A stretch of DNA of 32,000 nt from Erysipelotrichaceae bacterium (GTDB taxonomy: Bacteria; Bacillota_I; Bacilli_A; Erysipelotrichales; Erysipelotrichaceae). This document shows, piece by piece, positions 2,078-32,000 of this stretch. Position numbers and translations under genes: made by a program. Every line of letters begins with the position of its first letter. Position 1 is the first letter of the stretch. The DNA is taken from the NCBI GenBank assembly GCA_963663995.1, contig OY760660.1:840001-872000 (forward strand). Direction: 5' to 3'. The notes beneath the pieces were generated by a model that was not told the origin of the DNA, ran no database searches, and saw only the letters and a list, made by a program, of their open reading frames with translations.

Positions 2078-3043
2078 TTAACCTCTTGTCTTTACTATGT
2101 ATGAAAATATATTCAGTGTGAAGTCACTCAATGTCTTTAAGTACCATCGATACTTTAGTGGTAATTCTTTTATATAAATATTTGATTTCCATTTAGGAAA
2201 ATGATTCGACATCCACTTAAAGCTTTGACTCATTAGTTGTTTACTGAAGTCTGAACGATAAGCTCTGAAACTTCCATACAACATGAGTTGTTCGATCGCT
2301 ACATATTCTAATTCATTTTTAAATTCATTTTCTAAACCTAATTCTGTAAATTTTTTAATAAGTAAATCTAGGATGGTAAATATTTCAAACATTCTGATAT
2401 TAGATTTAGAACCCATAATTGATTGAGTTCTTTGCATATAATGTACTGCTGTTTTATCTGTGTATGAAAAGTTACTGCATAAGGCAAAGATTGGACATGT
2501 TACAGGAATATCTTCATACCATAAATTTAAGGGATATTCAAAATGATGGCATACGAAGAATTCACGTTTGTATAGTTTGTTCCATGCGAAAAGAGGAGAT
2601 AAAAATAGACGTTTTTTATTTATTTCATTTCCTTGATACCCTTTTAAGATCGTAGATTTATCTGTGTTTTCCCACTCATATTTAACATCACATAAAACTA
2701 AGTTTGATTGATCTTTGACGGCAATTGTATAAAGAATTTCAAAGTGATTAGGGTCAATATAATCATCCCCATCAATAAAACCTAAATAATCTCCTGTACA
2801 AAACTTAACCCCATAATTACGGGCATCACTTAGTCCCCCATTTTGTTTTGTAAATGACTTGAAAATGTGAGGATATCTTAAAACAAAATCGTCTATGATT
2901 GATTGAGATTGATCAGTTGATCCATCATTAACGCACAAAACTTCAATCTGATCTAAAGTTTGTTTGGCTAATGAATCTAAACATTTGAAAAGATACTTTT
3001 CTACATTATAGATTGGAACAACTATGCTCACTTTGATGCTCAT
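2078..3043 (-). CDS. Glycosyltransferase family 2 (soluble)
   Basis: 321 aa with VSIVVPIYNVEKYL, VNDGSTDQS, GGLSDARNYG and IDGDDYID motifs. It is a clear paralog of the GT2 at 22153..23100. ATGA start/stop overlap with the upstream gene at 3040..3043. Confidence 0.85.
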   Translation of the reverse strand: MSIKVSIVVPIYNVEKYLFKCLDSLAKQTLDQIEVLCVNDGSTDQSQSIIDDFVLRYPHIFKSFTKQNGGLSDARNYGVKFCTGDYLGFIDGDDYIDPNHFEILYTIAVKDQSNLVLCDVKYEWENTDKSTILKGYQGNEINKKRLFLSPLFAWNKLYKREFFVCHHFEYPLNLWYEDIPVTCPIFALCSNFSYTDKTAVHYMQRTQSIMGSKSNIRMFEIFTILDLLIKKFTELGLENEFKNELEYVAIEQLMLYGSFRAYRSDFSKQLMSQSFKWMSNHFPKWKSNIYIKELPLKYRWYLKTLSDFTLNIFSYIVKTRG

Positions 3044-8678: not shown

Positions 8679-9329
8679 CTAATAAAATCTAACAACTTCA
8701 ATACGACCATCTTCGCGTTCTATTAAAGTAATAGCGGCTGAATTTGGGAATAATGTTGTATCAATAATTTCACTTTCTTTATATGTCCAAGATAACTCAA
8801 TATAAAAACTCAAATATGATGTTCCATAATAATCATAATCAACACTATAAGAAGCTATTGAATCAGAAACTGTTTCAACTTCAACCAAATCTGTTAAAGC
8901 GATATTAGTATTTATATAGTCATACATTTTATTGTAATAATAAAGGCGAGATGAAAAGTAAAAGTTAGTACCTTCTTCAGGCATGATAAATTCACTACCA
9001 CCTATATCGTATACCCCTGCTTTATTACTCCAAGTATAATAATCTGCAACAAAACTTTTTGCGACTAACTCAGCTATGACTAGTCTTTGGGGATTATCAC
9101 TTTCAATTTCTGAGGTTAATTTGTCAAATAAATCTCTCTCTAAAGAAGTTGGATTACCTTTTAATGAATAATAATCATTAGAATTAATGACTTGCTCTGC
9201 TTCAGATGAACTATTAGACATAATCCCGAAAACAAAAATAAATATGCCTAAAAAGAGTGTAACAATAAATACTATTAGGCCATAATATAATTTTCGATTA
9301 CGATGAAATCCTTTTATAAATTTTTCCAT
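8679..9329 (-). CDS. Hypothetical membrane-anchored extracytoplasmic protein
   Basis: 216 aa with a single N-terminal TM (YYGLIVFIVTLFLGIFIFVFGI) followed by a Tyr/Ser-rich soluble domain. No family recognised. It lies between a YfhO gene and the LCP gene in the same operon. Confidence 0.6.
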   Translation of the reverse strand: MEKFIKGFHRNRKLYYGLIVFIVTLFLGIFIFVFGIMSNSSSEAEQVINSNDYYSLKGNPTSLERDLFDKLTSEIESDNPQRLVIAELVAKSFVADYYTWSNKAGVYDIGGSEFIMPEEGTNFYFSSRLYYYNKMYDYINTNIALTDLVEVETVSDSIASYSVDYDYYGTSYLSFYIELSWTYKESEIIDTTLFPNSAAITLIEREDGRIEVVRFY

Positions 9330-11946: not shown

Positions 11947-11947
11947 T

Positions 11948-12886
11948 CTATTTATTCTTTAATTGTTCTATAGAATCATAAACATATGGTTTGTTTACAG
12001 TTCGTTCTCTTAATAACATATCTAAATATTTTAAAATCATTGAAAGAACTAGAAATAATCCCGAGAAACTAATCGTTAAAAACATCATGGAAGTCGTCCA
12101 ACCACTCGCAATATTTTTTACAACTAGATATGATCCAATGACAAATGCAATCATTAATATTGAGAAGACAAAAAACAACATGGATAGACCTATAGAAATT
12201 GTTGATGCGATATGTGAATAACGAATCATAATCTCATAACCTAAATTAAATTTTTTAGTAAAACTCAATTGATTATAATCTGTTTTAAATGTGGGTTGAT
12301 AGAACTCAACAGTGCTAGGTAAACCAGAATAATGATATGACGCTTTTCGATAATTGATATTTGTGTTTAAAATACCAACTCTATTAATCGCTCTTCTTGA
12401 TAAGATTCTTGCTGTTTCAGTGTACAATTTCATATTTCGAGGAGATGAAATTTCGAGTAAACGATAGAACACTTTATTAAAAAATGATGGTTTAACATTG
12501 GGGGATAATGCCACGATATCAAACCCAGTTAAACTTTTTTTATAGATGTCAATTAAAAGTGAAACATCATAATCTATACTTAAAGTATCAAATTCAAATA
12601 TATAATCACCAATCGCTACTTTTTGGCCTGATACCATTGCTAATTCTAAACCGTGAAAATATGATAGGTTTAAAATTGTAATAGGTGCATGAAACTTGTC
12701 TTGAATTGCTTTTACTTTATCAATTGATTTATCTTGAGAAAAATCATTTATTAAAATAATTTCAAAATTCGTGAAATTTTCAGTAAACATTTCATCGATT
12801 TCAAGTAAATTCTTTTCAATAAAACTTTCATCATTGTGAACATATATAACCAGAGAAATATAGTTCTTTTCTTTTTGTACGTACAT
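11948..12886 (-). CDS. Divergent GtrB/CsbB-like GT2 with C-terminal TM hairpin; catalytic motifs degenerate
   Basis: 312 aa, colinear with the GtrB-like proteins (GT2 domain plus two C-terminal TMs plus a terminal KPYVY box). However NDGS is replaced by NDFS, SRNFGKE by SYFHGLE, and DADLQDPP by FDTLSIDYD. RBS AAGGAG lies 5-6 nt upstream of ATG 12886. Confidence 0.7.
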   Translation of the reverse strand: MYVQKEKNYISLVIYVHNDESFIEKNLLEIDEMFTENFTNFEIILINDFSQDKSIDKVKAIQDKFHAPITILNLSYFHGLELAMVSGQKVAIGDYIFEFDTLSIDYDVSLLIDIYKKSLTGFDIVALSPNVKPSFFNKVFYRLLEISSPRNMKLYTETARILSRRAINRVGILNTNINYRKASYHYSGLPSTVEFYQPTFKTDYNQLSFTKKFNLGYEIMIRYSHIASTISIGLSMLFFVFSILMIAFVIGSYLVVKNIASGWTTSMMFLTISFSGLFLVLSMILKYLDMLLRERTVNKPYVYDSIEQLKNK

Positions 12887-14824: not shown

Positions 14825-15756
14825 TTTTGTTCACCATTTATAAAAATTTCAATCGAATTTAAGACCTCATCTTTATTTATCAAGTAATGAGAATCCTTAT
14901 TAAATAAGTTTGCATATTTTGTCCACATATTATAAAACTGTGGTTTTCGTTCTAATCTATTGTTAAATTGAACTTTATTTATTTTTTCATATATTTCATA
15001 TGCAAAAACAGGTTCAGTCGCCAAATTTAAAACTTGTATTTCATTCTTTATAGCTACTTCAATATCACTAAAAAGTCGATTAAGCCCATAATATTGAAAA
15101 CAGTCATCTTGATCTGTAAACATTAAACTTGTACAGTTATTATTCTTAAGTACAGTTAATAATAATTCTGATTGATTCTCTTTCAATTTATATGAACCAT
15201 TTACAAATTCATACGATTTTATAATTTCTTGAAAGTCTTCTACACTTATTTGTGATTGAAGTTTTTGATAAAGAGGTGTATTTAAACTTGCTGGGACAGG
15301 GTTCATAAGATCGTAAATGAAGTTCTTTTTTAAACCTTTCCCAAATAATGCCGGTAATCTAAGAATGGATACTTTCTCAAAATATTTGATAGCTAATTCT
15401 TCAGCATATTTACGATTTTTACCATAGGCATGATGATTACTTACATCAAAAAAAGTAGATTCATCTACTTCATCACAATCTGGGAACACATCAATTGTGG
15501 ATATTAAAACAAAGTATCTGGTTTTAACATTTTTTAAAACATTGAACAAGTCATCAATTGATTTTAAATCTTCTTCTGGATATTGATTGGCATACCATTT
15601 TTGAGCACGAATACCCGCACAAACAACTAAGTCATAATCCTCATTAACAATTTCTTCAATATTTTTTGAATTATAAAGATGTGTAAAGTCAAATTGATCC
15701 TTTAAGTTTGATCCAACAAAACCTGTATACCCTATTAATGCTGTTTTTTTATTCAT
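14821..15756 (-). CDS. NAD(P)-dependent epimerase/reductase-like (extended SDR)
   Basis: 311 aa. N-terminal ALIGYTGFVGSNL (GxxGxxG), then LISTIDVF, and HAYGKNRKYAE at the catalytic Tyr/Lys position. 8-nt overlap with the upstream GtrB-like gene. Confidence 0.72.
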   Translation of the reverse strand: MNKKTALIGYTGFVGSNLKDQFDFTHLYNSKNIEEIVNEDYDLVVCAGIRAQKWYANQYPEEDLKSIDDLFNVLKNVKTRYFVLISTIDVFPDCDEVDESTFFDVSNHHAYGKNRKYAEELAIKYFEKVSILRLPALFGKGLKKNFIYDLMNPVPASLNTPLYQKLQSQISVEDFQEIIKSYEFVNGSYKLKENQSELLLTVLKNNNCTSLMFTDQDDCFQYYGLNRLFSDIEVAIKNEIQVLNLATEPVFAYEIYEKINKVQFNNRLERKPQFYNMWTKYANLFNKDSHYLINKDEVLNSIEIFINGEQK

Positions 15757-16678
15757 TATTTTTTAAATCACTTTCAAAATATTCTTTAATAATATAATTT
15801 GGTCTTCCCTTTATTTCAATAAACAACAAAGCCATATATTCAGCAATAATACTTAAAAATATAAACACGAAAGCAAATAGCCAAAAATAAACAAGAGCAC
15901 TTATACTTTGTTCAAAGTTTTTCTCGATTAATAAATATATTGAAAAGATAAATAAGATTATTACATATAAACTTGTAAACAAAGAAACAAGCTTTAAAGG
16001 TTGGTTGGTTGAGACCAAAATATTATGTTTTGCTAATTTTAGTTTTTTGGGAATATTATATTTAGTAACCCCTGCTGCTCGATCAATATCTTCATAGCCG
16101 ATATAGGTTGTTTTAAACCCCACCCATGACCATATATTTTTAATATATCTTCTATTTTCCTTTAAACTTAAAATTGTTTGCGCAACTTGTTTAGTAAATA
16201 GTCGATATTCTCTTTCATTATTCATTACTTTATCGTTGCTTAAAATATTAAAAATTCGATAGTAAGTTTCAGAGTAAAGTTTAGTAAAGAGTGATTGTGA
16301 TTTACGTGAAGTACGATATGTTCCAACTTGATCATAACCTTCATTTTCAATTTTACTAATCATTTCAGATAATAAATAAGGGGGATCTTGTAGGTCAGCA
16401 TCCATTAAAGCTATTAAATCACCTTTAGCACTTTTTAAACCTGCTTCAATGACACCTTCTTTACCAAAGTTTCGAGATAAACTAATACCAGTAATATTTT
16501 TATCTTTTTCTGACAAGTTTTTAATAATATTAAAAGTATCATCGTTACTACCATCATTCACAAAGATAATTTCATAGTTTCTTTTTAATGATATTAGAAC
16601 TTTAGTTAATTCAAGATAAGTTGTTTCAATAACTGCTTCTTCATTGAAACAAGGGATGATAACTGATAAAGTTTTCAT
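15749..16678 (-). CDS. Polyprenyl-phosphate sugar synthase, GtrB/CsbB-type GT2
   Basis: 309 aa with LSVIIPCFNEE, VNDGSNDDT, SRNFGKE and DADLQDPP motifs, two C-terminal TMs and a terminal GRPNYIIKE box. ATGA overlap with the upstream fusion gene at 16675..16678. Confidence 0.9.
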   Translation of the reverse strand: MKTLSVIIPCFNEEAVIETTYLELTKVLISLKRNYEIIFVNDGSNDDTFNIIKNLSEKDKNITGISLSRNFGKEGVIEAGLKSAKGDLIALMDADLQDPPYLLSEMISKIENEGYDQVGTYRTSRKSQSLFTKLYSETYYRIFNILSNDKVMNNEREYRLFTKQVAQTILSLKENRRYIKNIWSWVGFKTTYIGYEDIDRAAGVTKYNIPKKLKLAKHNILVSTNQPLKLVSLFTSLYVIILFIFSIYLLIEKNFEQSISALVYFWLFAFVFIFLSIIAEYMALLFIEIKGRPNYIIKEYFESDLKNNE

Positions 16679-19600
16679 ACTTTTTTAAATCTCCTATTAC
16701 CTTTTATCTTTTCAAATGACTTCAAACCAAAGATTACAGAAATTAATCCAACAAAAATAGCAGATAAATATCCACTAATCTTTTGTATAAGTGTACCATT
16801 ATAAAAAATATAAAGTCTACCTTCTTTAATATCACCTAAATCAACATTTAAAAGTGATTTGCTATCTTTTGTTGTTTTCAATAAGATATATTTACCATTA
16901 TCATCATAGAATGCTCCATAACCTTTATAGTACAAAAGTGGTAATTCTAATTGCGTATTTATATAAGCACCCTGATTAAAATCAACTACATAATTTAGTT
17001 GATTGTTTGAGTATGATATTTCAATAGGGTTTGAGGCATTTATAACTTTATTAGATGCATTTTGAGCTAAATTATCCATGTCAGCACTTTCAGGTAAAAA
17101 TTCAGCATAGTAATATTCAATTGAATACCTAGGGAAATTATCATACCAATACCCAATCATTTTTACATTATAGTAATAGTTAGTCATATATAGGTATTGA
17201 ACAGATATTAAAACTAAAGTTAAAACTTGGATCCACTTGCCTTTTTCAATAACGATTTCATTTATAAAATATGCGGTTAAAATACTTAAGAAAAAAGTTA
17301 ATACAAAATATAGTCTAAATGGAAATTGAATAAAATTAAGGAAAGATATCCAGTTAATTGGTATCACATTTGACACAATAAATAAAGTTGCTAGTGAAAT
17401 AATAAAAGAAAATAATAGTACTTGATTTTTTATAATACTCTTAAATCTAAAAATCAATCCAATAATTGGAATTAAAAATAAATACCATTCTATACCATTA
17501 GGAAATACAGCGAGTTGAGGACTGATAAAAACCAATTGAAAAATGTTATTTATTACATGTTCATGTAAATTAGTCCATGGTGTTTGATATTGGAAAGTAT
17601 CACTAAACATCATTTCTAGTAAAGGTAACCAATAGAATGCTGTTAATCCCAACGTAATGAATATTGCGAACAATATTTGTTTAATTTTATTTAATGAATG
17701 AATAAGAATTTTATAATTGAAAAGCGCGAAAATGAATAAAATAATAACCATAACAATGGTTGTAATCGTATGCGTTAAAATTAATCCAGACATGGAAAAA
17801 GCTAAAAGATAAGCTCTTGGTTTTTCATCATTTATTATTTTATATAATCCTAGAAAAACTAAAGGTACAAAGATGAATGCAACCCATTCACCTAAGGCTG
17901 CTCTTTCAAAAAAATCAGTGTAATTTCTATACACTGAAAAAGTATATAAAAAACTTGCTAATAGAGCTGCAGAACTTGATTTAAATAGATACTTTGAAGT
18001 CCAATACATTGAAAGTGCTGTAAGTAACGTTATTATTACTGCAAATATTTTATAGCTCAATATGAGGCTTAAACCAAAGTCCATCAAATAAACCGGAATA
18101 TAAAATAAACCTAAAGGGTAAAACAAGTTCACTGGATATCCATAACCATAATAAAAACCAGGTAATATTTTTAATTCACTAATATTAGATCTTAAAAGTT
18201 CAAATGATCCAACGATTCGTGAAAAATGATAAATAAGATCATGCCCAGAAGGTATACCTTTTAAAAGCATTGGAAAAATAAAAACAATTGGGATTAAAGT
18301 TAAAGAAATTAAATTTCTTTTTATTTTAAAAAATTTCATTAAATTTTGTTGTTTGTTTTTATGTTTAAAGAATTTTCGAACTTCGAAAAAGATTAAGAAA
18401 ATCAGTAAAATAAATCCAATAAATGTAGTTATCGCTCCTAACTTAAATCCTTCAGGCATAAAATACATTTTTATTGTGTTATCACCTGCATTAATAGGAA
18501 AACCTACAAACCCACCATTTACAGCATAGATTGGCACTGACTCATTGTTGACTGTTACTTTCCATCCCTTATCAAAAGCAATTGATGTTACAACAAAATT
18601 TCTATCTTCACTATAAATGTCTCCTAATAATAGATTCTGATATTTTTCAACATTTTTTATTGAAGCACTCGATGCATCTGATAAATAGGTTTTAATTATT
18701 TCAACATCATTTTCATCTGCAATTATTGTTTGATTTATGAGTGATATATCAGGATTTTTTACATAATCATCATAACTAATAACAAAATTATATGAGTTTG
18801 CGATAGGTCTATATTGATTATTTAGATAAAGTGGTAATCCATAAAAATCACCTATTAAAATAAAGTTTGAATGAGGCAATTCAGATTCACTAGTTACAAT
18901 TGAGTATTTAACACTCGCAAAATCTATGATGTCAGGGTTTGTAATATTCCAAGTCCAACCAAAACCTCGATCTAAACTAATAAGCTTAGATAAATTATCA
19001 ACACTATATTGATAGGTTGAATCATATGTTTTAACATCTGAATAATTATATAAAAGATTCATATTCAAACTTGAATACCAATAAATTGAATCATACGGTG
19101 CATAAATTCGATAATAACCATAATCACCATCTAATTCTTGAAGGTATTGGTTCAATTGATCCGGTGTTTTACCTAAAACAGTTTCTGATTTATTTACAAA
19201 GTCCCAATCTAACTTCTTATAGTTTGGATTCATATTAAACGTAAGATAACTTGCGAATATTATCTCAACTACTGAAATTATGATAATCCAAGTCTTTTTA
19301 TTCTTGTTATCCTTGAATAACACAAAATATATAACCCAAATAAAAATAATAGTTATGATGAACACTATCCATTGAAATGTATTATTGAAAGGATTTACAT
19401 TTAAAATCATAGATAAAACAGGAATATTCAAAAAAATTAGAAGCGAAATAATTAGTGATGTTTTTTTGAGTATTTTTAAATCAATAAATTCTATTTTATT
19501 AAAATATTTCATAGCTAGAACAATATTTAAAAAAATTAAGAACAAAGTCCATCGAAAAGAGTGTTCACTTAATCCATGCATAAATGAACCACCAATTGGA

Positions 19601-20652
19601 AATACTAAAAGAATTATCATAATGCTATAAAATATTCTATTTATTAGTTTATTTTCTTTATCAAAGATACTTTGTCCTAACATTAATGCTGTGAAAGATC
19701 CGCTAAATAACATAAGTTCACGTGTTTGATAAGTTATAGATTCATAAATAGACGTATATTGTTCAATTCCATTATTATTAACAATTTGACTGATAAAAGT
19801 CGAACTAGGGACAAAATGTGCAATTAACAAATGAAAATATACTCTTATATCCTCAAAATAAAAATGTGAATTTGTTGAATTAAACAATCTTGAATTTTGT
19901 AATAATAATAAGACACCAGGTACTATAAGAATAGCTGATAACAAAAAACCAAGTAAATATAAAGCAATTAAAGGAAATGCACTTTTTAAATATTGCTTTC
20001 TATGTTCTTCAAAAAATCGATAAGTATAATAAATTAGTGTAAAAATCGACAATGTATAAAACAAATAAAAATTCATAATCAACATTAAAGCAGTCATTAT
20101 GGCATAAAAAAAGTAAACTTTCTTTTTCATAGCCAATTCTAAACTTGCAAAATATAAAGGTACGAAGCTATAAAAACTTAAATATATTGGAACTTCTACA
20201 TATTTTAATGCCCAAGCAGAAAAAGTAAACAATAGAGCACCAAGAATTCTTGTATATTTATCCCAGTTTCTAACTCTTCCATAGATGTAAAAAGAAAGAG
20301 CAGCTGAAATAAATTTTAAAACGCTCAATATCATCACTATATTGTAGTAATGATTATTTATAAGAATTCCTAAATAGCTATATATATCTCCAAAAATGTA
20401 ATATGACTTAGCCGCTAAAAAATTATTCCCAAAAAACATATTCCAAGACCAAAAGGGAAAAGTTTTTTGTTTTATAGCATTTACGATTAAACGTCTAAAC
20501 TCAATAAAAAATAAACGATATTGTGTTCTTGAGTCAAACCCAATAACAAAAGCTTTACCCTCAATAATATAAGGTACCATTATGAAAGCAGTAATTAATA
20601 TTACAAAACTAATTAAAATTAATATTGGAAAGTATTTCTTTATTAATTTCAT
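16675..20652 (-). CDS. Fusion of two GT-C-like membrane modules: N-terminal YfhO-family plus C-terminal COG5617/PTPS-related-like
   Basis: Continuous ORF. ORF-track residues 1-777 form a complete YfhO: multi-TM region, extracytoplasmic domain, VTSIAFDKGWKVTVNNESVPIYAVNGGFVGFPINAGDNTIKMYF, final TM, basic tail. Residues 778-1331 begin MKFFKIKRN..GIPSGHDLIYHFSRIV..GYGYPVNLFYPLGLFYIP and form a second multi-TM protein with its own extracytoplasmic domain and terminal TM. The ORF-track start at 20670 is TTG. I prefer ATG 20652..20650, which has GGAAGGA upstream and shares one base with the upstream TGA (TGATG). Confidence 0.8.
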   Translation of the reverse strand: MKLIKKYFPILILISFVILITAFIMVPYIIEGKAFVIGFDSRTQYRLFFIEFRRLIVNAIKQKTFPFWSWNMFFGNNFLAAKSYYIFGDIYSYLGILINNHYYNIVMILSVLKFISAALSFYIYGRVRNWDKYTRILGALLFTFSAWALKYVEVPIYLSFYSFVPLYFASLELAMKKKVYFFYAIMTALMLIMNFYLFYTLSIFTLIYYTYRFFEEHRKQYLKSAFPLIALYLLGFLLSAILIVPGVLLLLQNSRLFNSTNSHFYFEDIRVYFHLLIAHFVPSSTFISQIVNNNGIEQYTSIYESITYQTRELMLFSGSFTALMLGQSIFDKENKLINRIFYSIMIILLVFPIGGSFMHGLSEHSFRWTLFLIFLNIVLAMKYFNKIEFIDLKILKKTSLIISLLIFLNIPVLSMILNVNPFNNTFQWIVFIITIIFIWVIYFVLFKDNKNKKTWIIIISVVEIIFASYLTFNMNPNYKKLDWDFVNKSETVLGKTPDQLNQYLQELDGDYGYYRIYAPYDSIYWYSSLNMNLLYNYSDVKTYDSTYQYSVDNLSKLISLDRGFGWTWNITNPDIIDFASVKYSIVTSESELPHSNFILIGDFYGLPLYLNNQYRPIANSYNFVISYDDYVKNPDISLINQTIIADENDVEIIKTYLSDASSASIKNVEKYQNLLLGDIYSEDRNFVVTSIAFDKGWKVTVNNESVPIYAVNGGFVGFPINAGDNTIKMYFMPEGFKLGAITTFIGFILLIFLIFFEVRKFFKHKNKQQNLMKFFKIKRNLISLTLIPIVFIFPMLLKGIPSGHDLIYHFSRIVGSFELLRSNISELKILPGFYYGYGYPVNLFYPLGLFYIPVYLMDFGLSLILSYKIFAVIITLLTALSMYWTSKYLFKSSSAALLASFLYTFSVYRNYTDFFERAALGEWVAFIFVPLVFLGLYKIINDEKPRAYLLAFSMSGLILTHTITTIVMVIILFIFALFNYKILIHSLNKIKQILFAIFITLGLTAFYWLPLLEMMFSDTFQYQTPWTNLHEHVINNIFQLVFISPQLAVFPNGIEWYLFLIPIIGLIFRFKSIIKNQVLLFSFIISLATLFIVSNVIPINWISFLNFIQFPFRLYFVLTFFLSILTAYFINEIVIEKGKWIQVLTLVLISVQYLYMTNYYYNVKMIGYWYDNFPRYSIEYYYAEFLPESADMDNLAQNASNKVINASNPIEISYSNNQLNYVVDFNQGAYINTQLELPLLYYKGYGAFYDDNGKYILLKTTKDSKSLLNVDLGDIKEGRLYIFYNGTLIQKISGYLSAIFVGLISVIFGLKSFEKIKGNRRFKKV

Positions 20653-22145
20653 CAATATGATTCCTTCCAATAAAAGATAACATCTGTGTCCATTGGAATA
20701 TTATTATAAATTTTAAAGGCTTCCATGTGATAGCTATCTTCTTCTTCGATATCACCAGCATGTATGGTATAGATAGGATAGCGAGGTAACCAAATGCCTG
20801 TTGTATACTGATCTGAATATAGATGATAATCATCTAGTATCATTTCACGTTCATGATAAATATTGGCTACAGCATTATATTTGATATAAAAGGTACGCAC
20901 ATCTATAAATGACATAACAATTAAAATTACGATCATTCCATTTTTTATTAGCCTATTAATTTCTATGATTTCCAAAATTAATACAAAACTTATAAACATA
21001 TAAAATACAGCATATAAAATTAAGCGAGAACCAATAACTGGTGACATCAAAAGGCTTGCACTACTTAAACTTGCAATGCCCATAAATATAATTAAATACG
21101 GTTGTTTTAATTTATAAATATTTAAACGTATTATCTGACTCAAAAGTAAAACAATATAAAGAACCCAAAACAACATTGACCACCACTGTGTCACATCAAA
21201 TAAACGAGCAGTTTGGGGTAAATATTGTATTAATCTTGTGTTTAATAAATATATTATCGCTATTCCATAAACCAGAATACTCATTACAAATTCAATTTTT
21301 GAGAAAGTCTTATAACTTACATAGATTAATAGGCAAGATAGAGAAAAAATAATGACTTTATTTTGAATGAATACATAATTTATAATTTGAGGTAAATTTC
21401 TAAGTACTTTTTCAAAAATGCTTAATGTTTGCCATTCAGGCATAGTAGCTAATCGGATATTTGATCCAGGACTTAAATACCATATGACAAAGGCAATTCC
21501 ATAAAAAATAATCGAAACAATTAGTATCGGATGAACTTTTTTTTGTTTATAAAAATCATAAACAATTAAACTTAAAACCACAAATCCAATAGCTATACTT
21601 ATATTTTCCATACCTAATGGTAGATAAAAAGATGTAAATGCAACTAGGATATAAGAAATCCAATTTTCTTTACCTTTAAATAGTGAATTTGTTATTGTGA
21701 ATAATAATACTATAGATAACCATAAGGGTATTCCATAATAGATAGAACCTGTTATCCAAGTATAGGTTTCCATACGAATATTATCTTTTATAGATACTAT
21801 AAAGAAAAATAAAAATAATAATGATAATTTTTGATTCTCTTTTTTAATAAATGAAGATAACAAATAAAATGTATTGGCAAAAATAAATGCATTTAATAGA
21901 TTCCATATTTCTTTATATTGAATCAGTGTATGCATAGAAAACAGGGTCATTAAACGACCTTCCCAGTGAAAATACATACCAATAGCAGCATCTACAACAT
22001 TAGATTTGACGACGTTGTTATGGAATGCCCAATCATCTCCTGACAAAGGTGTTTTATAGGAAATATAATAAAACAAACAAAAAACAATAGATGTCATCAT
22101 TAATCTAAAACGATTATCTTTTACATATTTGATTATTTCACCCAT
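20652..22145 (-). CDS. Polytopic membrane protein, GT-C-like (acidic DD motif in first external loop)
   Basis: 497 aa, hydrophobic throughout. The first loop after TM1 reads KTPLSGDDWAFHN, placing a DD pair where GT-C enzymes carry catalytic Asp residues. The same feature occurs in the 451-aa protein at 24159 (GFIDDNAY). GAGGG RBS lies 5 nt upstream of ATG 22145. Confidence 0.6.
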   Translation of the reverse strand: MGEIIKYVKDNRFRLMMTSIVFCLFYYISYKTPLSGDDWAFHNNVVKSNVVDAAIGMYFHWEGRLMTLFSMHTLIQYKEIWNLLNAFIFANTFYLLSSFIKKENQKLSLLFLFFFIVSIKDNIRMETYTWITGSIYYGIPLWLSIVLLFTITNSLFKGKENWISYILVAFTSFYLPLGMENISIAIGFVVLSLIVYDFYKQKKVHPILIVSIIFYGIAFVIWYLSPGSNIRLATMPEWQTLSIFEKVLRNLPQIINYVFIQNKVIIFSLSCLLIYVSYKTFSKIEFVMSILVYGIAIIYLLNTRLIQYLPQTARLFDVTQWWSMLFWVLYIVLLLSQIIRLNIYKLKQPYLIIFMGIASLSSASLLMSPVIGSRLILYAVFYMFISFVLILEIIEINRLIKNGMIVILIVMSFIDVRTFYIKYNAVANIYHEREMILDDYHLYSDQYTTGIWLPRYPIYTIHAGDIEEEDSYHMEAFKIYNNIPMDTDVIFYWKESY

Positions 22146-24158: not shown

Positions 24159-25514
24159 ATGAAAAAAAATAGAATTTTAAATATGATAACTATTAATAAA
24201 GAGAAACTTCCTTTGGTTTTTCTTATAACTAGTTTAATAACACTTTACTCTACTGCAAAACTAGGATTTATTGATGATAATGCATATCTTTCATTAATTG
24301 GGAATCGTTCTTTTGTTGAATTTATAAAATACAATTATGACACTTGGTCATCAAGAATTTTTGGAGCATCACTACATGTACTTATATCACCACATCATTG
24401 GATGTGGTTTATTCTGAATATTGTTGTTTGGGTAATATTGTATTACTCGTTAGATAAAATAATAAATGATTCAAAATCAGTTTATGTAAAATGGGCTATT
24501 GTATTATCATTGCTCTCATATCGTCACTACTATATGGCTTCCGCTGGATGGATAGGAACGACAATAAATTATAGTTGGCCTTTAGCTTTAGGAGTTTTTT
24601 CATTAATTCCTTTTACAAAAATTTTAAGAAACATAAAAATAACTTCTTGGGAATGGTTCTTATTTTATCTTGCACTCTTATTTGCATCAAATTTTGAACA
24701 AATGACATTAATATTAGGTGTTTTATATTTTACTTTTTGGATATATCAGTTATTAAAAAAAGAATCTCACTGGCCAATCTTCATAGGTGGTATCCTAATC
24801 GGAATAAATGTGTTACTGATTGTTTTTAGTCAAGGTAATTTTTCTAGAAGAGTTGCAGAAGTAGATAGATGGTTTCCAGAATATTCTACACTAAGTAATT
24901 TCAGATTAATTGATTTGGGGTTCTCTTCTTCACTCTATCCAGTATATTTTAAACCAGATGTTATTTATTTGCTATTTGCTTTAATATTGGCGCTATTAAT
25001 TTACAAAAAAGACGGATCTATTAAAAATACTATTATCTCTTTTATTCCATTTTCCATAATGATTATATTTGGCATTTTTAACGATAATATAAACAATTTA
25101 TTTCCAACGATTGAATATATTAATAATTCGCTAACTGATATTGGTACTGGTATGAGTTTCACATCTGCTATTAGTTTTATTCCTAATATCATTTTATTAA
25201 TAGCACTAGTTTCATCTATTTATACTATATATGTAGGTTTTGGTAATAGTAACAAATCCTTATTTTTAGTATTGATATTTGTTCTTGGCTTATTAAGTCG
25301 AATGATTATGGCACTTTCACCGACAATATGGGCTTCTGTTGATAGAACATTTATATTTATGCAATTTTCATTTGTAATAGTTGGATTGTTTGCTTTTAAT
25401 GAGCTGATAATTCTAAATTCAATTAATAAGAGAGTATTTACATACATATCATTCATAGTCTTTGTATTAACATTTATTGATAATTTTTATAATATGACTT
25501 TCTTTTTTAGATAG
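24159..25514 (+). CDS. Polytopic membrane protein, GT-C-like partner of the 23190 synthase
   Basis: 451 aa, hydrophobic throughout, with first-loop motif AKLGFIDDNAYLS. AAGGG RBS lies 9 nt upstream of ATG 24159. It follows a GtrB-like gene after a 39-nt gap. Confidence 0.6.
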   Translation: MKKNRILNMITINKEKLPLVFLITSLITLYSTAKLGFIDDNAYLSLIGNRSFVEFIKYNYDTWSSRIFGASLHVLISPHHWMWFILNIVVWVILYYSLDKIINDSKSVYVKWAIVLSLLSYRHYYMASAGWIGTTINYSWPLALGVFSLIPFTKILRNIKITSWEWFLFYLALLFASNFEQMTLILGVLYFTFWIYQLLKKESHWPIFIGGILIGINVLLIVFSQGNFSRRVAEVDRWFPEYSTLSNFRLIDLGFSSSLYPVYFKPDVIYLLFALILALLIYKKDGSIKNTIISFIPFSIMIIFGIFNDNINNLFPTIEYINNSLTDIGTGMSFTSAISFIPNIILLIALVSSIYTIYVGFGNSNKSLFLVLIFVLGLLSRMIMALSPTIWASVDRTFIFMQFSFVIVGLFAFNELIILNSINKRVFTYISFIVFVLTFIDNFYNMTFFFR

Positions 25515-28012
25515 AAATATTCAAGAATCAAAAAAATTAATGTTACTCCACTTATAATTGATCCGATTTTTAAGAAAGGTTGCTCATATACAAATTCAAT
25601 ATTATGCTGACCTTTACTAATATCAAATCCAATAAATGAGTAATTTACTTTATAAGTTTCTACTGGAATACCATCTATTTTTACTTTCCATCCTTTATTA
25701 AAAGCAATTGTTGAAAATACTATAGAATTATCCTTTGTAATATTTATATCTGCTATTATCTTGTCTTCTTCAATTATTAAATTCTCAAATTTATCTTTAT
25801 CATTTATAGAAGAATATATTTCATCGATTAAATCGTTAGATACAAAATAAGCACTATAAATTGGATATTCATTTTTATTATAAATTGCCGTGCAATATAC
25901 ACCTACTCTATCAGCATCTAAATTATTTTCAATTGCGATATAAGCATACTCATTAACAACTTGTGAATTTAGCACATTATTTTCTTTATACCACTCTAAA
26001 TAACATTCAGTATACGGATTAGAAAACGAATAATCAATAAAGAAATATCCATTTTCTTCTTCTGATGTCAGTTGGATATTTGTGACATTTTCAGCAATAA
26101 TTTTCGGTAATATTAGATCATCCAATGTTACTGTTGTCTTTTTATCACTCACAATGGAATTTAACATAGTAATTTCTTTTTCAAATGATGAACTTTTTTC
26201 AATTTCTTTATAATTTGTTAGCTTATCTGATGCAAACCCTAATCCAACGACTAGATTATTTTTATAAATATCAAAATTATCAACTGTTTCTAAATAATCG
26301 TAACCATATGGAGCAACATAATCATTTAAAGCTACATAGTATTTCGAGCCTAATAAACTCTTAAACAAAAATTTTGATTCATTATTACTAATGTTCCATC
26401 CTGTGCCAAAACTGTTATCTAATATTGCTCGCGAATCATGATTATAAATTGTTGAATAAAATGTAAACCCTGAATAATCAAAAGCCAAAGGTTGATTTGG
26501 ATTGTCCACAATACTATCAATTCTATAAAAGTTTTTATCAATATCAATTATATAATCAAATGCCCTGTTTACACTAATGTCTTTACTTATATAATCAGTT
26601 GAACGTACAAATCTTAAATCGAAATTATAGTACAAACGACTTCCAATGCTTAATATTGCTTCAAAAGAAATAATTAAAAAAATCAAAAAATGAAATGTTT
26701 TTTTAAGTTTGATAGAAAAAACAATAATAATCGTATATATGATTACAAAAATAAAAATTAACAATAGTATCACATAAGTAAACCAACGATCTGAATTGTT
26801 GATTAAATTTAAATTTCTACCAAAATATAAAAAGCTTAAAATTAAAGATAAATTTAAAATACTTGTGAATAAAATAGATTTAATATTTAAATTCTTTATA
26901 TTATCTAAAATATATACAACAATTAATGCATTAAAAAAAACAATACCATTTTGCCATCGAACATCACCATTTCCGCTAAATAGTTTGCTTAAAAATGGAA
27001 ATATATTTCCTGAAAAATATATAATATAAAAAATTAAATAATATTTTGTTTCTTTGTTTTTTATAAAAAATAGCAAAGGGAATAACAAAGGAAAAATAAT
27101 AAAAGAATAATAATAATTAAGACTTACATTGTTATTAATTATTCGACTAATAAATAAGTTAGTACTATAATCACTTGAAACTGGAGAGTAAAAACTCGTA
27201 ATTAATTGATATAAATATGAGAAAGACATTCTAATCAAATCAGAATTTATATTTTGAATATTCAAACGAGGAGAACTAAGTAAAATATCAATACTTGGTA
27301 ATAATACAAAACTAGAAAGCAATATTCCGTATATATATAGTTTGATTAAAGGAAAAACAACTGAAACAAAATGTTTAAAATTAAGATTATTATATTGTTT
27401 AAAATAAAGAAAGAGTTGATAAATTATTAAAAACCAAGAAAACATATAAAAACTATAAGAGTTTGAAATGATAAAAAAAGTGACACTTAAAATAAATAAA
27501 TACTTCTTTCTACCAGTCTTAACTTCTTCTACTAAATATAAAAGTATAATAGCCCACAAGTAACTTTCTAGAAAAACATTGAAATGCAACCAATAAGAAA
27601 CATATCCCGAGAAAGTTATAATCAAAGATCCAATTATTGCATTATTTTTAACTAGAGTATGATGGTTTAACCATTTATATGAAAAAACAGAAATTAGGAT
27701 TAAAATTAAAATTTGTTGTAAAAAAAGAAATTGACCTATTAGTACGTACTTATTAATTAATACATAAATATATGTAAAAATTGATCCTAAAATTGAATTA
27801 AAGAAAAAAACATAATTAGTAGCACCAAAGCCAATAGAGTTATTCCATAGGGATATAGAAAAATCTTTCAATAAAAAAAGAATCTGTTTATAAACTGGTA
27901 ACAAAGTATCTAAAGGATCACCATAAAATATTAAAATACCATTATTAAAAAAAATAATATAAAAATATAAAAAACTAAAAATAATAAAATTTATAAATAA
28001 TAGTTTTCTCAT
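25487..28012 (-). CDS. YfhO-family polytopic membrane glycosyltransferase (GT-C)
   Basis: 841 aa with YfhO architecture and the C-terminal signature FSTIAFNKGWKVKIDGIPVETYKVNYSFIGFDISKGQHNIEFVY plus a final TM. Its 3' end overlaps the convergent gene by 28 nt. Confidence 0.85.
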   Translation of the reverse strand: MRKLLFINFIIFSFLYFYIIFFNNGILIFYGDPLDTLLPVYKQILFLLKDFSISLWNNSIGFGATNYVFFFNSILGSIFTYIYVLINKYVLIGQFLFLQQILILILISVFSYKWLNHHTLVKNNAIIGSLIITFSGYVSYWLHFNVFLESYLWAIILLYLVEEVKTGRKKYLFILSVTFFIISNSYSFYMFSWFLIIYQLFLYFKQYNNLNFKHFVSVVFPLIKLYIYGILLSSFVLLPSIDILLSSPRLNIQNINSDLIRMSFSYLYQLITSFYSPVSSDYSTNLFISRIINNNVSLNYYYSFIIFPLLFPLLFFIKNKETKYYLIFYIIYFSGNIFPFLSKLFSGNGDVRWQNGIVFFNALIVVYILDNIKNLNIKSILFTSILNLSLILSFLYFGRNLNLINNSDRWFTYVILLLIFIFVIIYTIIIVFSIKLKKTFHFLIFLIISFEAILSIGSRLYYNFDLRFVRSTDYISKDISVNRAFDYIIDIDKNFYRIDSIVDNPNQPLAFDYSGFTFYSTIYNHDSRAILDNSFGTGWNISNNESKFLFKSLLGSKYYVALNDYVAPYGYDYLETVDNFDIYKNNLVVGLGFASDKLTNYKEIEKSSSFEKEITMLNSIVSDKKTTVTLDDLILPKIIAENVTNIQLTSEEENGYFFIDYSFSNPYTECYLEWYKENNVLNSQVVNEYAYIAIENNLDADRVGVYCTAIYNKNEYPIYSAYFVSNDLIDEIYSSINDKDKFENLIIEEDKIIADINITKDNSIVFSTIAFNKGWKVKIDGIPVETYKVNYSFIGFDISKGQHNIEFVYEQPFLKIGSIISGVTLIFLILEYFYLKKKVIL

Positions 28013-28062
28013 TATCTTATTCTATCGAATCCAATTTTTTTATTCAACTTTATAAGTGAAAT

Positions 28063-28992
28063 TTAAAAATTTATTCTTTTCTCTTCTATTACAAGTGGAC
28101 GGTTCATAATTCGTTGATTAATACTAATAATGTACTCACCAATTATTCCTAAAAAAACAAGTGTTACTGAATTAAACAAAAACAAACCAATGATAATTGG
28201 CGCAAATCCAGCTGTAAAAGTATCCCAATACATAAGCTTTAAGAAGAGATAAATCATTGCAATTCCTAGGCTTATAATTGCTCCGCTAAATCCAATAAAT
28301 GATGCTATCCTTAATCCAATTTTAGTATAAGAAACAAAACCTATCATGGCTGCATCATATAGTTTAAAAAAATTATTACTGGATTTACCTGCTCTTCTCT
28401 TTGCCTGCAAAAAATCAATTTTTTTAATTTTAAATCCTAATTCACTAACTATACCTCTGAAATACGGTTGAGGGTCCTTTAAATCCCGTAACACTTGTAT
28501 AAAATCTTTATCATATAGTCCAAATCCAGTGAAATGTTCAATTTGTTCGACATCTGATGCATATTTAATTAATTTATAAAAAAGTGTTCTAAGAAAGTGC
28601 AATACTGGATTTACTAAACTTTTACTCTTAATTCCAATTACAATTTTATTGCCAGCTTCCCATTCTTTTATAAAGTCTGGGATTCTTTCCAATGGATCTT
28701 GAAAATCTGCAGACATTGTTATAACACAATCACCTGATGTCTGTAATAAACCATAATAAGGTGAATTAAATTGGCCAAAATTTCTTGCATTAAATATTGC
28801 TTTTATATTTGGGTTTTTATTGCATATATTTTCAAGCAAAGCTTGTGTCTTATCTATAGAATGGTTATCTATAAATATTATTTCATAAGTATATTTCTCG
28901 AAAGACTTAAGAATTTTACTTAATTCTTGTGCCATCAATTCAATATTCTCTTCTTCATTATATGTTGGAATTAATATACTAATTTTTTTCAT
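28063..28992 (-). CDS. Polyprenyl-phosphate sugar synthase, GtrB/ArnC-type GT2
   Basis: 309 aa with ISILIPTYNEEENI, IDNHSIDKT, ARNFGQ and SADFQDPL motifs, two C-terminal TMs, and GEYIISINQRIMNRPLVI. ATGA overlap with the upstream epimerase at 28989..28992. Confidence 0.85.
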   Translation of the reverse strand: MKKISILIPTYNEEENIELMAQELSKILKSFEKYTYEIIFIDNHSIDKTQALLENICNKNPNIKAIFNARNFGQFNSPYYGLLQTSGDCVITMSADFQDPLERIPDFIKEWEAGNKIVIGIKSKSLVNPVLHFLRTLFYKLIKYASDVEQIEHFTGFGLYDKDFIQVLRDLKDPQPYFRGIVSELGFKIKKIDFLQAKRRAGKSSNNFFKLYDAAMIGFVSYTKIGLRIASFIGFSGAIISLGIAMIYLFLKLMYWDTFTAGFAPIIIGLFLFNSVTLVFLGIIGEYIISINQRIMNRPLVIEEKRINF

Positions 28993-29897
28993 AATTTTTC
29001 CCCTAAAATAATATTCTTTATACCCTCATTAAAAAGAGTTATCGGTTCAAATCCAACATCTAACTTTAAGTCAGAAATATCTGCTATTAAATGCATAACT
29101 TGGTTTTGTGAATATGGATTTTCTCCGAAAACTAAATCATACTTTGGATTTATTATATCTCTAACATCTTTTATATAATCTTTTAAAGGTTTTCCAATTC
29201 CGCCACCTAAACAATATATCTTATTATTTAAGTCTTTAGATTTAGCAAGTAAATAAAATGCTTGAGCAGCATCAGCTGAATATAAATAATCCCATATCTG
29301 TTCTCCAGCAGTAAGCCGTATGGATGTATTTGTGGATATATTATTAATTAAACTCATAATTAAAGTGTTTTTATCATCATTTGGCCCATAGATACTAAAA
29401 ACTCTTACCCATAAATTTCTTATATTAAGTGTTTTACATAAACTTCTGCTCATATGACCTGCAGTCAATTTAGCAATTCCATATCCTGTTTCCGGATTCG
29501 TTAGTGATTTAGGACTGAGAATTGTATTACTTCTTCCAAACTCAGCCTGTGAACCAGCACCAATAAATAATGAACACCCTAGCTTATTGGCCAAATGGAC
29601 AGCATCTAATGTATAAATAACATTGTCCAGTTGATGATATAAATCATCTCTACCAATACCTATTGTTCCGTCCCACGCAAAATGAAAAAATACATCATAT
29701 TGCTTTGAAATATTTAAAATTTTAAGATTATTTAAATTGCATTCTATAACTTCTACATATATTGATTTAGGAATCAAATTAATATTTTGTGATCCTTCAC
29801 GAACAATTGCTAAAACATATATCTTTTCAGATATCATTTTTTTAATTAAAGCTATTCCAATTGTTCCTGTTGGTCCAGTAATAACAATACTATTCAT
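28989..29897 (-). CDS. NAD-dependent sugar epimerase/dehydratase family (extended SDR)
   Basis: 302 aa with IVITGPTGTIGIAL (GxxGxxG), FIGAGSQAEFG, and YGIAK (YxxxK). Confidence 0.8.
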   Translation of the reverse strand: MNSIVITGPTGTIGIALIKKMISEKIYVLAIVREGSQNINLIPKSIYVEVIECNLNNLKILNISKQYDVFFHFAWDGTIGIGRDDLYHQLDNVIYTLDAVHLANKLGCSLFIGAGSQAEFGRSNTILSPKSLTNPETGYGIAKLTAGHMSRSLCKTLNIRNLWVRVFSIYGPNDDKNTLIMSLINNISTNTSIRLTAGEQIWDYLYSADAAQAFYLLAKSKDLNNKIYCLGGGIGKPLKDYIKDVRDIINPKYDLVFGENPYSQNQVMHLIADISDLKLDVGFEPITLFNEGIKNIILGEKL

Positions 29898-29900
29898 TTC

Positions 29901-30954
29901 TTACTCAACAATAAATGGTGTAAATTCAAAACCATATTTAATTTCATCAATATTAATATCATCAACTACAGATAAGTTCATACTATCATCAATTAAAATT
30001 GCTCTTATTGAGTCGTTTAATTGCTTTTTGTCTTTTTTAATTGAATCAACCAAATCTGTTAACTTTAAATTATATTTCTTTGTTTTTATAATTTGATTTA
30101 AAATAGTTTCAGTTCTAGAGATATAGTTTTCGTTAAGGAGTCCTCGTTTAAATGAAATTCTATTAGCAACTATCATTCCAATCGCAACAGCAGTTCCATG
30201 TGGTACTTTATAATTTGTTGCTGATTCGATAGCATGTCCAAAGGTATGGGCAAAGTTTAACAATACTCTCTCATTACGATCAAATTCATCTTTTTGAATA
30301 TAATTTTTTTTAAAATTTAATGAAAAAGTATTATATTTTATGATAGTTTTTGAATCTCTCTTTAATAATAAATCAACATCTTTTTCAAGTCGATTTAACC
30401 CCTCAAATCCATACATTAAGTTGAATTTAACAACTTCTCCTAGACCACTTAAATAATCCATTTCAAGTAAACTTTTAAAAAAAATTTGTATTTATATATA
30501 TTTTTGTTGGTGGATAAAAAGTTCCTAATAAATTCTTAAAATTCTTGTAGTTAAGAGATGTTTTCCCTCCAATACAACTATCAGCTGATGCTAACAATGT
30601 TGTTGGAAAAAACACCCAATCTATCCCTCGATATAACACATTCGCAATAAAACCAGTTAAATCTTGAACAATACCACCGCCAATTGAAACTAATCTAGCA
30701 TTTCTTTTCCCTGGTATTTCAATCATCTTATCTAAAATATTAAATACTGTTTTTATGTTTTTATTTTTTTCAGTGGCTTTTAACAAAAATAATCTATTTG
30801 AAGGTATGCCATCTAAAAAATCATTGCTATAAAGTGAATAGACTTTGCTATCAACAACATAAAATGTGTTTTTGTTATCATAAATGATGTCAAATATTGA
30901 TGATTTTTTTGTAAATGTAACTTCGTAATTTTTTAGTTGTGATTTAATTTTCAT
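29901..30954 (-). pseudogene. 3-dehydroquinate synthase-like sugar-phosphate cyclase family gene, split by a +1-base frameshift in a T8 (plus-strand A8) tract
   Basis: ORF 30475..30954 carries the N-terminal DHQS motifs (GGGIVQDLTGFIANVLYRGIDWVFFPTTLLASADSCIGGKTSLN, KNLLGTFYPP). ORF 29901..30461 carries the C-terminal motifs (GLGEVVKFNLMYG, LNFAHTFGHAIE, HGTAVAIGM). Removing one base from A8 at 30477..30484 joins them as ...INTNFFKSLLEMDYLSGLGEVVKF..., about 349 aa. I prefer start ATG 30954 (ATGA overlap with the SDR stop) over ATG 31020, which lies inside the SDR gene. Confidence 0.8.
30477..30484. repeat. A8/T8 homopolymer at the frameshift site of the DHQS-like gene
   Basis: Read directly from the sequence: cttttAAAAAAAAtttg. 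The premature TAA (complement of 30475..30477) uses the last T of the tract. Confidence 0.95.
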
Positions 30955-31616
30955 TGAACTGAATAGCCCCCATCGATTACAATTTCTTGACCTGTAATAT
31001 ATGTATTTTTTTCGGAACATAAATAAAAAACTATTTCAGCAATTTCTTCTGGTTGAGCTAGTCTTTTTAATGGAATGGTTTCTGCTATTTTTCCTATTTG
31101 TTCTGTTGAATTATTTTTACTTGTTAGTTCTGTTAATGTAAACCCTGGGCATACTGTATTAACGAGTATATTTTCATTTGCTACTTCAAGAGCTAACGTT
31201 GTTGTGATTCCATGAATACCTCTTTTTGTTGCACTATAAATTCCTCTTCCAGGTTTTGAAACAACTGACCATATTGATGCAATATTTACAATCCTTCCAT
31301 ACTTTTGAGTTTTCATTTTTGGAACAAATGATTTAAGTAGATAGATAGGCGCGATTAAATTTATATTGAATGTATTTTCGATATCTGTTTCTTTAACATT
31401 TTCAATAAGATTAATTTCATTTATTCCAGCATTATTTACTAAAACATCATAGGTATCATTTTTATGATTCTCAATAAATTTTTTAATTGAGTCTATATTG
31501 CTTAAATCTAGTTCATTTCTTGTGGGTGCATAAACAAAATAACCATTACTTTCAAATATTTTTTTAATTTCTAATCCAATCCCTCTAGAACCACCTGTCA
31601 ATAAAACTTTTTTCAT
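30951..31616 (-). CDS. Short-chain dehydrogenase/reductase (classical SDR, FabG-like)
   Basis: MKKVLLTGGSRGIG (TGxxxGxG), NNAGI, and SxxxxxxxxxxxxYSATK (catalytic Ser/Tyr/Lys). I prefer ATG 31616 (GGAG 8 nt upstream, 1 nt after the upstream stop) over ATG 31643, which lies inside the TPP-enzyme gene. Confidence 0.88.
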   Translation of the reverse strand: MKKVLLTGGSRGIGLEIKKIFESNGYFVYAPTRNELDLSNIDSIKKFIENHKNDTYDVLVNNAGINEINLIENVKETDIENTFNINLIAPIYLLKSFVPKMKTQKYGRIVNIASIWSVVSKPGRGIYSATKRGIHGITTTLALEVANENILVNTVCPGFTLTELTSKNNSTEQIGKIAETIPLKRLAQPEEIAEIVFYLCSEKNTYITGQEIVIDGGYSVQ

Positions 31617-31617
31617 T

Positions 31618-32000
31618 TTATTCTCCAAATTTAATACTTTCATATTCTTCTCGATCTAAGAATGGAAACATATCATCTATTCTTGGAGAAACTATCGTTC
31701 CATCTTCTAAAACTTTTGATGATAATTTTGGTTCAAAGTTTTGTTCTACATCTAAAATAACTTCGCATAGAATTGGACCTTTTTCTCTTAACACATTGTT
31801 TAATATTTCATCTAATTTGGAATGGTTATCAATTTTTTTATATTTTATATCATATGCATATGCAATTTTTTCCAACTCAGGAAAACTTACACCATTATCA
31901 GAACACACACCTATTAAATCTTTTTTAGTCAAGTTCTTTTGAGTTTGTCTAATCGAGTGATATCCATTATTATTTAGCACAAATAAAACAATATCTAAAT
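31618..32000 (-). CDS. Thiamine-diphosphate-dependent enzyme (acetolactate-synthase-like), C-terminal part; 5' end off the window
   Basis: The frame stays open to position 32000: translation upstream of the ORF-track GTG reads LDIVLFVLNNNGYHSIRQTQ, the NN-GY-x-IR-x-Q segment of the TPP-binding C-terminal domain of ALS/IolD/YerE-type enzymes. Only ~127 codons are visible, so the subfamily is unknown. Confidence 0.72.
   Translation of the reverse strand, partial: LDIVLFVLNNNGYHSIRQTQKNLTKKDLIGVCSDNGVSFPELEKIAYAYDIKYKKIDNHSKLDEILNNVLREKGPILCEVILDVEQNFEPKLSSKVLEDGTIVSPRIDDMFPFLDREEYESIKFGE

Follow-up and report, generated by a model that had tools for sequence, protein, structure and literature searches.

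Gene organization of the locus

In the window (the whole stretch of 32,000 nucleotides that was analyzed), one gene of the dehydroquinate synthase (DHQS) fold occupies positions 30954..29901 of the minus strand and is split at a run of eight T residues (T8; A8 on the plus strand, 30477..30484). The gene encodes an AroB-like sugar-phosphate cyclase and belongs to a cassette (window 28063-32000) with the order ALS-like TPP enzyme, SDR, AroB-like cyclase and epimerase, after which a GtrB/PgfS-like GT2 gene and a YfhO gene follow. The features are listed below in the direction of transcription.

31618..32000, minus strand: 3′ end of the gene of an acetolactate-synthase-like (ALS-like) TPP enzyme, a member of the conserved cassette, which runs off the window
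30951..31643, minus strand: SDR-family oxidoreductase, upstream of the cyclase in the cassette
30475..30954, minus strand: N-terminal half of the AroB-like sugar-phosphate cyclase, 159 codons plus TAA
30477..30484, minus strand: T8 run as read in the mRNA, corresponding to A8 on the plus strand
29901..30476, minus strand: C-terminal part of the cyclase, K160 to E350 plus TAA, in the +1 frame, with the DHQS_C domain
28989..29897, minus strand: NAD-dependent epimerase/dehydratase-family gene, downstream and intact, starting 3 nt past the cyclase stop codon
28063..28992, minus strand: GtrB/PgfS-like GT2 (polyprenyl-phosphate glycosyltransferase type), intact
25487..28012, minus strand: YfhO-family membrane glycosyltransferase, intact, covering positions 3-835 of the 835 of the Pfam model

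The start codon of the cyclase gene and the stop codon of the SDR gene before it share bases in the sequence ATGA. The ORF listing places the start of the N-terminal half at an upstream ATG at 31020, and the alignment with homologs indicates that the true start is at 30954. The downstream epimerase, GtrB-like and YfhO genes had been described as intact in the original prediction, and their full-length Pfam coverage bears this out.

The remainder of the window carries genes of a cell-wall glycan locus, namely rmlC, rmlD, several GT2 genes, an LCP-PASTA gene, two further GT2/YfhO pairs and two DUF6056 genes.

9370-12886, 15749-20670 and 25487-28992: three pairs of GT2 (GtrB-like) and YfhO-family genes, one of which is a 1331-aa YfhO fusion
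20652-22145 and 24159-25514: DUF6056 proteins
6136-8667: LCP-PASTA protein
689-2075: rmlC/rmlD

With its three GT2/YfhO pairs and the DUF6056, LCP-PASTA and rmlC/rmlD genes, this is a multi-decoration cell-wall glycan locus. Two of its ORFs, at 3040-5103 (687 aa) and 8679-9329 (216 aa), gave no Pfam match at E <= 1e-4. Beyond its self match (100%), the RmlD protein (1230-2075) has one relative at 81% identity, and those from named Clostridium, Culicoidibacterales and other taxa do not exceed 50%.

A cyclase gene split into two ORFs

As encoded, the cyclase consists of a 159-aa ORF and a 186-aa ORF, not of one continuous ORF of about 350 amino acids. From the ATG at 30954, 159 codons lead to a TAA codon at 30477..30475, and this frame spans the Rossmann-type DHQ_synthase N domain. 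The +1 frame is free of stop codons from AAA (K160, 30476) to the TAA codon at 29903..29901. At the break, the mRNA reads AUA AAU ACA AAU UUU UUU UAA AAG; the original prediction had given the A8 position and the context from ACA onward exactly. The T8 run starts with the third base of Asn157, takes in the codons of Phe158 and Phe159, and ends with the first T of the premature TAA codon. The run lies inside the 18-nt overlap window that extends from the stop codon of the +1 frame to that of the 0 frame.

Deletion of one T residue (T7) gives a 350-aa protein that reads ...NTNFFKSLLEMDYLSGLGEVVKF... over the junction. The junction peptide of this T7-restored cyclase is NTNFFKSLLEMDYLSGLGEVVK, also given as FFKSLLEMDYLSGLGEVVK. 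The restored protein was aligned with 13 full-length homologs and has no gap at the junction. It has a Pfam DHQ_synthase domain (PF01761, residues 57-164, E 2e-33) and a DHQS_C domain (PF24621, residues 170-310, E 8e-33), and the boundary between them (164 | 170) coincides exactly with the break. It also matches the NCBIfam model TIGR04425 with 413.3 bits against a curated cutoff of 400, over residues 3-339 and model positions 1-338 of 348. TIGR04425 is named 'AroB-related putative sugar phosphate phospholyase (cyclizing)' and has the model type 'hypoth_equivalog'; a literature search for this accession found no mention of it. More than 100 family-invariant columns of the 13-homolog alignment are kept, including the H236/H240/H252 region. 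Among PDB structures, the closest relatives are DHQS (5hvn, E 6e-48) and DOIS (2d2x; 2-deoxy-scyllo-inosose synthase). The two ORFs are two halves of one gene, far beyond chance, as had been proposed from the sequence, and removal of one U does restore the conserved region between them. An addition of two T residues (T10) would restore the same protein with one extra Phe, which is present in none of the 13 aligned homologs, and is less likely than T7.

The restored cyclase shares both DHQS domains and the invariant residues with the superfamily of TIGR04425, DHQS, 2-deoxy-scyllo-inosose synthase and EEVS, and the SDR/TPP/epimerase neighborhood of the TIGR04425 family is present here as well. 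The family is encoded by a continuous ORF, whereas the window gene is not a single ORF.

The junction site in homologs

Is the interrupted layout found in other members of the family? The restored protein was searched against 5.8 billion proteins. The full-length homologs among the matches listed are single chains of about 350 amino acids, and the closest of them are P0001 and P0002, with 67% and 62% identity, respectively. The DNA of the closest relatives at the homologous codons is GAT TTT TTT AGA (L081 and L082) or TCT TTT TTT CTA (L083), so that both relatives, at 67% and 62%, have exactly T7 within an uninterrupted ORF. The window has AAT TTT TTT T|AA AAG at the same codons, which is T7 plus one T. 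These alignments show that T7 is the ancestral state.

I then used 83 homolog loci, of which 80 are from GTDB species representatives and three from Logan assemblies. A local tblastn search with the restored protein gave one unbroken HSP across the junction in every one of the 83 loci, and a stop codon or a change of frame at the junction site was found in none of them. The T run here is between 2 and 8 nt long, with T6 in 28 loci, T7 in 10 loci and an in-frame T8 in one locus. The run exists because of conserved Phe-Phe codons and is a by-product of them. By this comparison, the site is an ordinary weak spot that results from Phe-Phe codons in AT-rich genomes, and not a conserved recoding site. 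A comparison of tract length among orthologs had been proposed earlier as a check, and it gave T7 in the closest relatives, variation from T2 to T8, and a frameshift in 0/83 loci.

Some database proteins consist of the C-terminal half only, and it was considered whether they reflect a recurrent break at this site. This was rejected: L084 is truncated by a contig end, and the frameshifts of L085 lie elsewhere. The L085 cyclase homolog (L085:2555-3627), which was assembled by Logan, has two frameshifts, one close to the GGG motif and the other close to PPDDIY, and reflects either decay of this copy or a noisy assembly. This shows that disrupted copies of the TIGR04425-type cyclase arise at differing sites.

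A second strain was sought for comparison of the tract length, and exact look-ups of the SDR, the epimerase and the C-terminal half (P0121) found no contig encoding them. A protein search with the C-terminal half only gave the self match and then partial matches at 63% identity or less, and the best match in a scan of GTDB genomes was 55% identical. Both halves and every neighbor tested are singleton protein clusters from one contig of 1,948,504 bp. The source organism is poorly sampled.

The out-of-frame C-terminal half bears no mark of decay. The ratio of C-terminal to N-terminal identity to the homologs is 0.854, compared with 0.893 +/- 0.083 among the homologs themselves; thus, the C-terminal half shows no excess divergence relative to the N-terminal half, and it keeps every family-invariant residue. 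Furthermore, the 25 other large ORFs of the window are all free of interruptions and lie close together. Since the out-of-frame half has not decayed and the neighbors are intact, the event is inferred to be either very recent or an artifact. The earlier argument that intact downstream genes speak against long-term decay of the operon therefore holds, and it is strengthened by the undiverged half.

A/T homopolymers in the window

The window has a GC content of 27% and contains 44 A/T runs of at least 7 nt, all but one of which lie within ORFs; none reaches 9 nt. The 43 runs other than the one at the break (42 inside ORFs) leave the reading frames intact. Six of these are 8-mers, which are in-frame in intact genes or, in one case, in the C-terminal half of the cyclase gene. 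The latter run, at 30304-30311, is A8 in the mRNA sense, is in-frame in the context AAT TTT AAA AAA AAT TAT, and is a potential further hotspot of slippage or mutation.

The number of such runs was compared with 300 synonymous-codon shuffles of all coding sequence of the window, with the cyclase set to T7.

Coding A/T runs of at least 6 nt: observed 122, expected 121.8 +/- 6.4, shuffles at or below observed 55%
Coding A/T runs of at least 7 nt: observed 42, expected 46.9 +/- 4.4, shuffles at or below observed 16%
Coding A/T runs of at least 8 nt: observed 6, expected 18.0 +/- 3.1, shuffles at or below observed 0/300
Coding A/T runs of at least 9 nt: observed 0, expected 5.6 +/- 1.6, shuffles at or below observed 0/300

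Runs of 6 and 7 nt are at expectation, those of at least 8 nt occur about 3-fold less often than expected, and none reaches 9 nt. Selection against slippery runs usually starts at 9 nt and varies by organism, and slippage is productive on 8-nt A runs in some organisms (Baranov et al., PMC1088944). By the logic of that study, the depletion places the onset of harm from such runs at 8-9 nt here. Thus, this genome, with 27% GC, seems to select against slippery runs from 8 nt upward, which hints that 8-mers slip measurably in replication or transcription in the source organism.

These counts bear on slipped-strand phase variation, in which the T tract would be an evolved contingency locus whose frequent length changes turn a glycan-precursor pathway on with T7 and off with T8. 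The surroundings would suit such a switch: the locus is devoted to surface-glycan decoration and has three GtrB-like/YfhO pairs, and genes of this class are often phase-variable. Moreover, the frameshift is reversible in principle, and the depletion of coding runs of at least 8 nt suggests that such runs are unstable. The window tract resembles the simple-sequence-repeat contingency loci in the glycan genes of Campylobacter, Neisseria, Helicobacter and Mycoplasma in that it is a homopolymer within a gene for a surface glycan and its length decides between an ON and an OFF state. It differs from them in that it is explained by Phe-Phe codons and in that such runs are depleted here. Its 7 or 8 nt are also below the PhasomeIt cutoff of at least 10 nt for poly-A/T, and even tracts at the PhasomeIt cutoffs may switch at less than 1e-5 (PMC6321876). 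In addition, six other in-frame 8-mers occupy ordinary genes of the window, and the T2 to T8 of the homologs, as set by the Phe-Phe codons, give no sign that a long tract is maintained. Since long A/T runs are avoided and not enriched in the coding sequence of the window, T8 is a disfavored state and not a maintained one, which counts against an evolved contingency tract. Phase variation, which had been among the earlier suggestions, is therefore not supported and is regarded as quite improbable.

Search for signals of recoding or reinitiation

It had been pointed out that the break permits slippage in the manner of RF2. The geometry is real: at UUU UAA, with an in-frame stop codon in the A site, the P-site tRNA-Phe finds a perfect match in the UUU of the +1 frame, and the product of the +1 shift is identical to the native sequence. 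This is the 'shifty stop' principle (Weiss 1987, as cited in PMC5009743). However, when a T is added to T7 ahead of an AAA Lys codon, the UAA codon and the RF2-like geometry arise automatically. The RF2-like configuration calls for no explanation of its own.

Stimulatory elements were searched for around the site. The 30 nt upstream of the run (CAAAAAUAUAUAUAAAUACAAAUUUUUUUU) contain no SD-like stimulator, as had been noted before, and not a single G. Folding of the 141 nt that surround the site was compared with that of shuffled sequence and gave no excess stability (z = -0.08). A search of Rfam over 29500-31500 gave one chance-level, irrelevant match, to a Tetrahymena snoRNA family (E 0.38, far under the gathering score). 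An alternative genetic code was also considered and rejected; TAA, TGA and TAG end intact ORFs of the window 12, 7 and 5 times, respectively, so that the standard code applies.

Programmed recoding would mean that the full-length enzyme is intended and is made either by an RF2-like +1 shift at UUU UAA or by programmed transcriptional slippage on T8. The prfB (RF2) frameshift and the window gene have in common the re-pairing of the P-site tRNA beside an in-frame stop codon and a functional product in the +1 frame. In contrast to prfB, the window gene lacks an SD-like stimulator, has UAA and not the RF2-specific UGA as the stop codon, lacks an autoregulatory logic, and has a layout that is conserved in none of the 83 homologs, the 67% and 62% relatives included. 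The known cases of transcriptional slippage (A9 in Thermus dnaX, T9 in Shigella mxiE, poly(A) rescue in Buchnera and Blochmannia, and Citrobacter tssM) also have an A/T homopolymer in coding sequence, and frame-restoring slippage is conceivable here, the more so as 8-nt A runs can be productive in some organisms. However, efficient slippage typically takes 9 nt, a threshold that depends on the organism, and the run here is 8 nt (PMC1088944). The run with its two-frame layout is absent from the 83 homolog loci, so that programmed transcriptional slippage as a route of recoding, which had also been brought up, is disfavored. No regulatory rationale for recoding is apparent. With neither a stimulator, nor a structure, nor a relevant Rfam match, and with no frameshift among the homologs, programmed recoding is extremely improbable, and of the earlier RF2-style suggestion only the re-pairing geometry remains.

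Might the two halves be made separately? The first internal ATG of the C-terminal half is M165 (30461), 13 nt past the premature stop codon. It has no SD-like motif, whereas 13 of 24 window genes have one. Furthermore, L162, which is invariant in the alignment with the homologs, would be missing from a split form that starts at M165, and no natural two-gene version of the cyclase family was found among the database matches checked. A two-piece enzyme through reinitiation at M165 is conceivable and is considered unlikely.

A broader possibility is that T8 is real and is rescued by unprogrammed leakiness, by a few U7 or U10 transcripts, by a few ribosomes in the +1 frame, or by association of the N-terminal fragment with one reinitiated at M165. 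The first two routes would restore the frame at a low level that might still provide enough enzyme. The position of the break exactly at the domain boundary is consistent with this, and so is the presence of the run inside the 18-nt overlap window. Unprogrammed frameshift suppression is about 1% in E. coli (PMC10861913), and 'savior indels', in which compensatory frameshifting occurs at a low level, are a recognized category (PMC5009743). The depletion of runs of at least 8 nt fits proneness to slippage. Against the association of fragments stand the features of M165 described above and the finding that full-length matches listed are single chains; of the C-terminal-only entries checked, one was cut off by a contig end and the other had two frameshifts. 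Leaky rescue in any of these forms is unlikely. As for a narrower version, in which T8 is a leaky 'savior indel' or a low-rate switch and slippage from U8 to U7 or at the shifty stop yields a few percent of native cyclase, I regard it as improbable. In such a case, occasional T8-to-T7 reversion would add to the yield, and an uncharacterized cyclitol-like or unusual-sugar decoration, delivered by the GtrB-like/YfhO system, might be tuned or toggled in a low-GC, Bacillota-like lineage that is poorly sampled.

Possible origins and consequences of the extra T

The T8 tract is most simply explained as a plain, unprogrammed one-base insertion into a homopolymer, which is either a real recent mutation or a miscall of the assembly; the probability of this reading is estimated at about 0.85. 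The conserved Phe-Phe pair at the boundary of the DHQS domains is encoded by TTT TTT, with a T before it to make T7 and an AAA Lys codon after it. One extra T turns T7 into T8 here, shifts the frame by +1 and leads to an immediate TAA codon. This is a known kind of event. An ordinary 'frameshifted' CDS shows a single-base change in an A/T run, an immediate stop codon, adjacent half ORFs and an otherwise perfect gene, all of which are seen here, and neither an ordinary frameshifted pseudogene nor an assembly frameshift has any structural difference from the window case. Recoding and phase variation, on the other hand, gave negative results in the defining tests that were run, namely conservation, stimulators, tract length and tract maintenance. 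Taken together, the evolved or exotic readings are unlikely. Thus, of the four explanations that the original prediction listed, the assembly error and the genuine, recent frameshift survive, and recoding and phase variation are unsupported.

The one-base insertion has two sub-cases. In the first, the assembly or its consensus is in error, and the genome actually carries T7 and an undamaged, working cyclase gene. The insertion lies within one of the longest homopolymers of the window, the cyclase is otherwise perfect and the operon is intact throughout. With its single contig of 1.95 Mb, the source is typical of long-read assemblies, and the residual errors of such assemblies concentrate in homopolymers. 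However, the other 43 A/T runs of at least 7 nt keep their reading frames, which indicates that miscalling of homopolymers is not rampant, and real frameshifts likewise favor homopolymer runs. An assembly error is a substantial possibility that is put forward only tentatively. In the second sub-case, T8 is a real and very recent loss-of-function mutation in one sequenced strain, to which I would give roughly an even chance.

If T8 is real, the AroB-like cyclase would be essentially off. The unusual glycan precursor made by the TPP-SDR-cyclase-epimerase cassette would then be absent, and the downstream GtrB-like/YfhO pair would be left with no substrate. In the strain that was sequenced, this decoration pathway would most likely be inactive, and the genes downstream, which are translationally coupled, may suffer polar effects in addition. 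Reversion from T8 to T7 by replication slippage would be possible, at the ordinary rates of a mutation hotspot.

Both halves of the cyclase stand as separate entries in public protein collections. The cyclase is best annotated as a frameshifted gene or pseudogene, or corrected once the reads have been inspected, and not as two proteins or as a candidate for recoding or phase variation.

The interrupted cassette

The frameshift matters very little in itself, and the cassette that it interrupts is more interesting. If the frameshift is real, the strain is a natural knockout of a widespread, uncharacterized TPP-SDR-TIGR04425 cyclase-epimerase cassette, which feeds the GtrB-like/YfhO decoration here, and such a strain could help to find what the cassette makes. 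The same order of the cassette genes was found in L083:1018-6358, where a GtrB/PgfS-like GT2 gene and the gene of a large membrane protein follow directly, as in the window, in which the membrane protein is YfhO. The cassette is also present in L028:5659-11920. It is conserved among distant Bacillota-type genomes. The gene arrangement suggests that an unusual, possibly carbocyclic or branched, sugar decorates a cell-wall polymer via the cassette. The core set of the cassette recurs in Clostridium thailandense, there with an HMGL-like gene.
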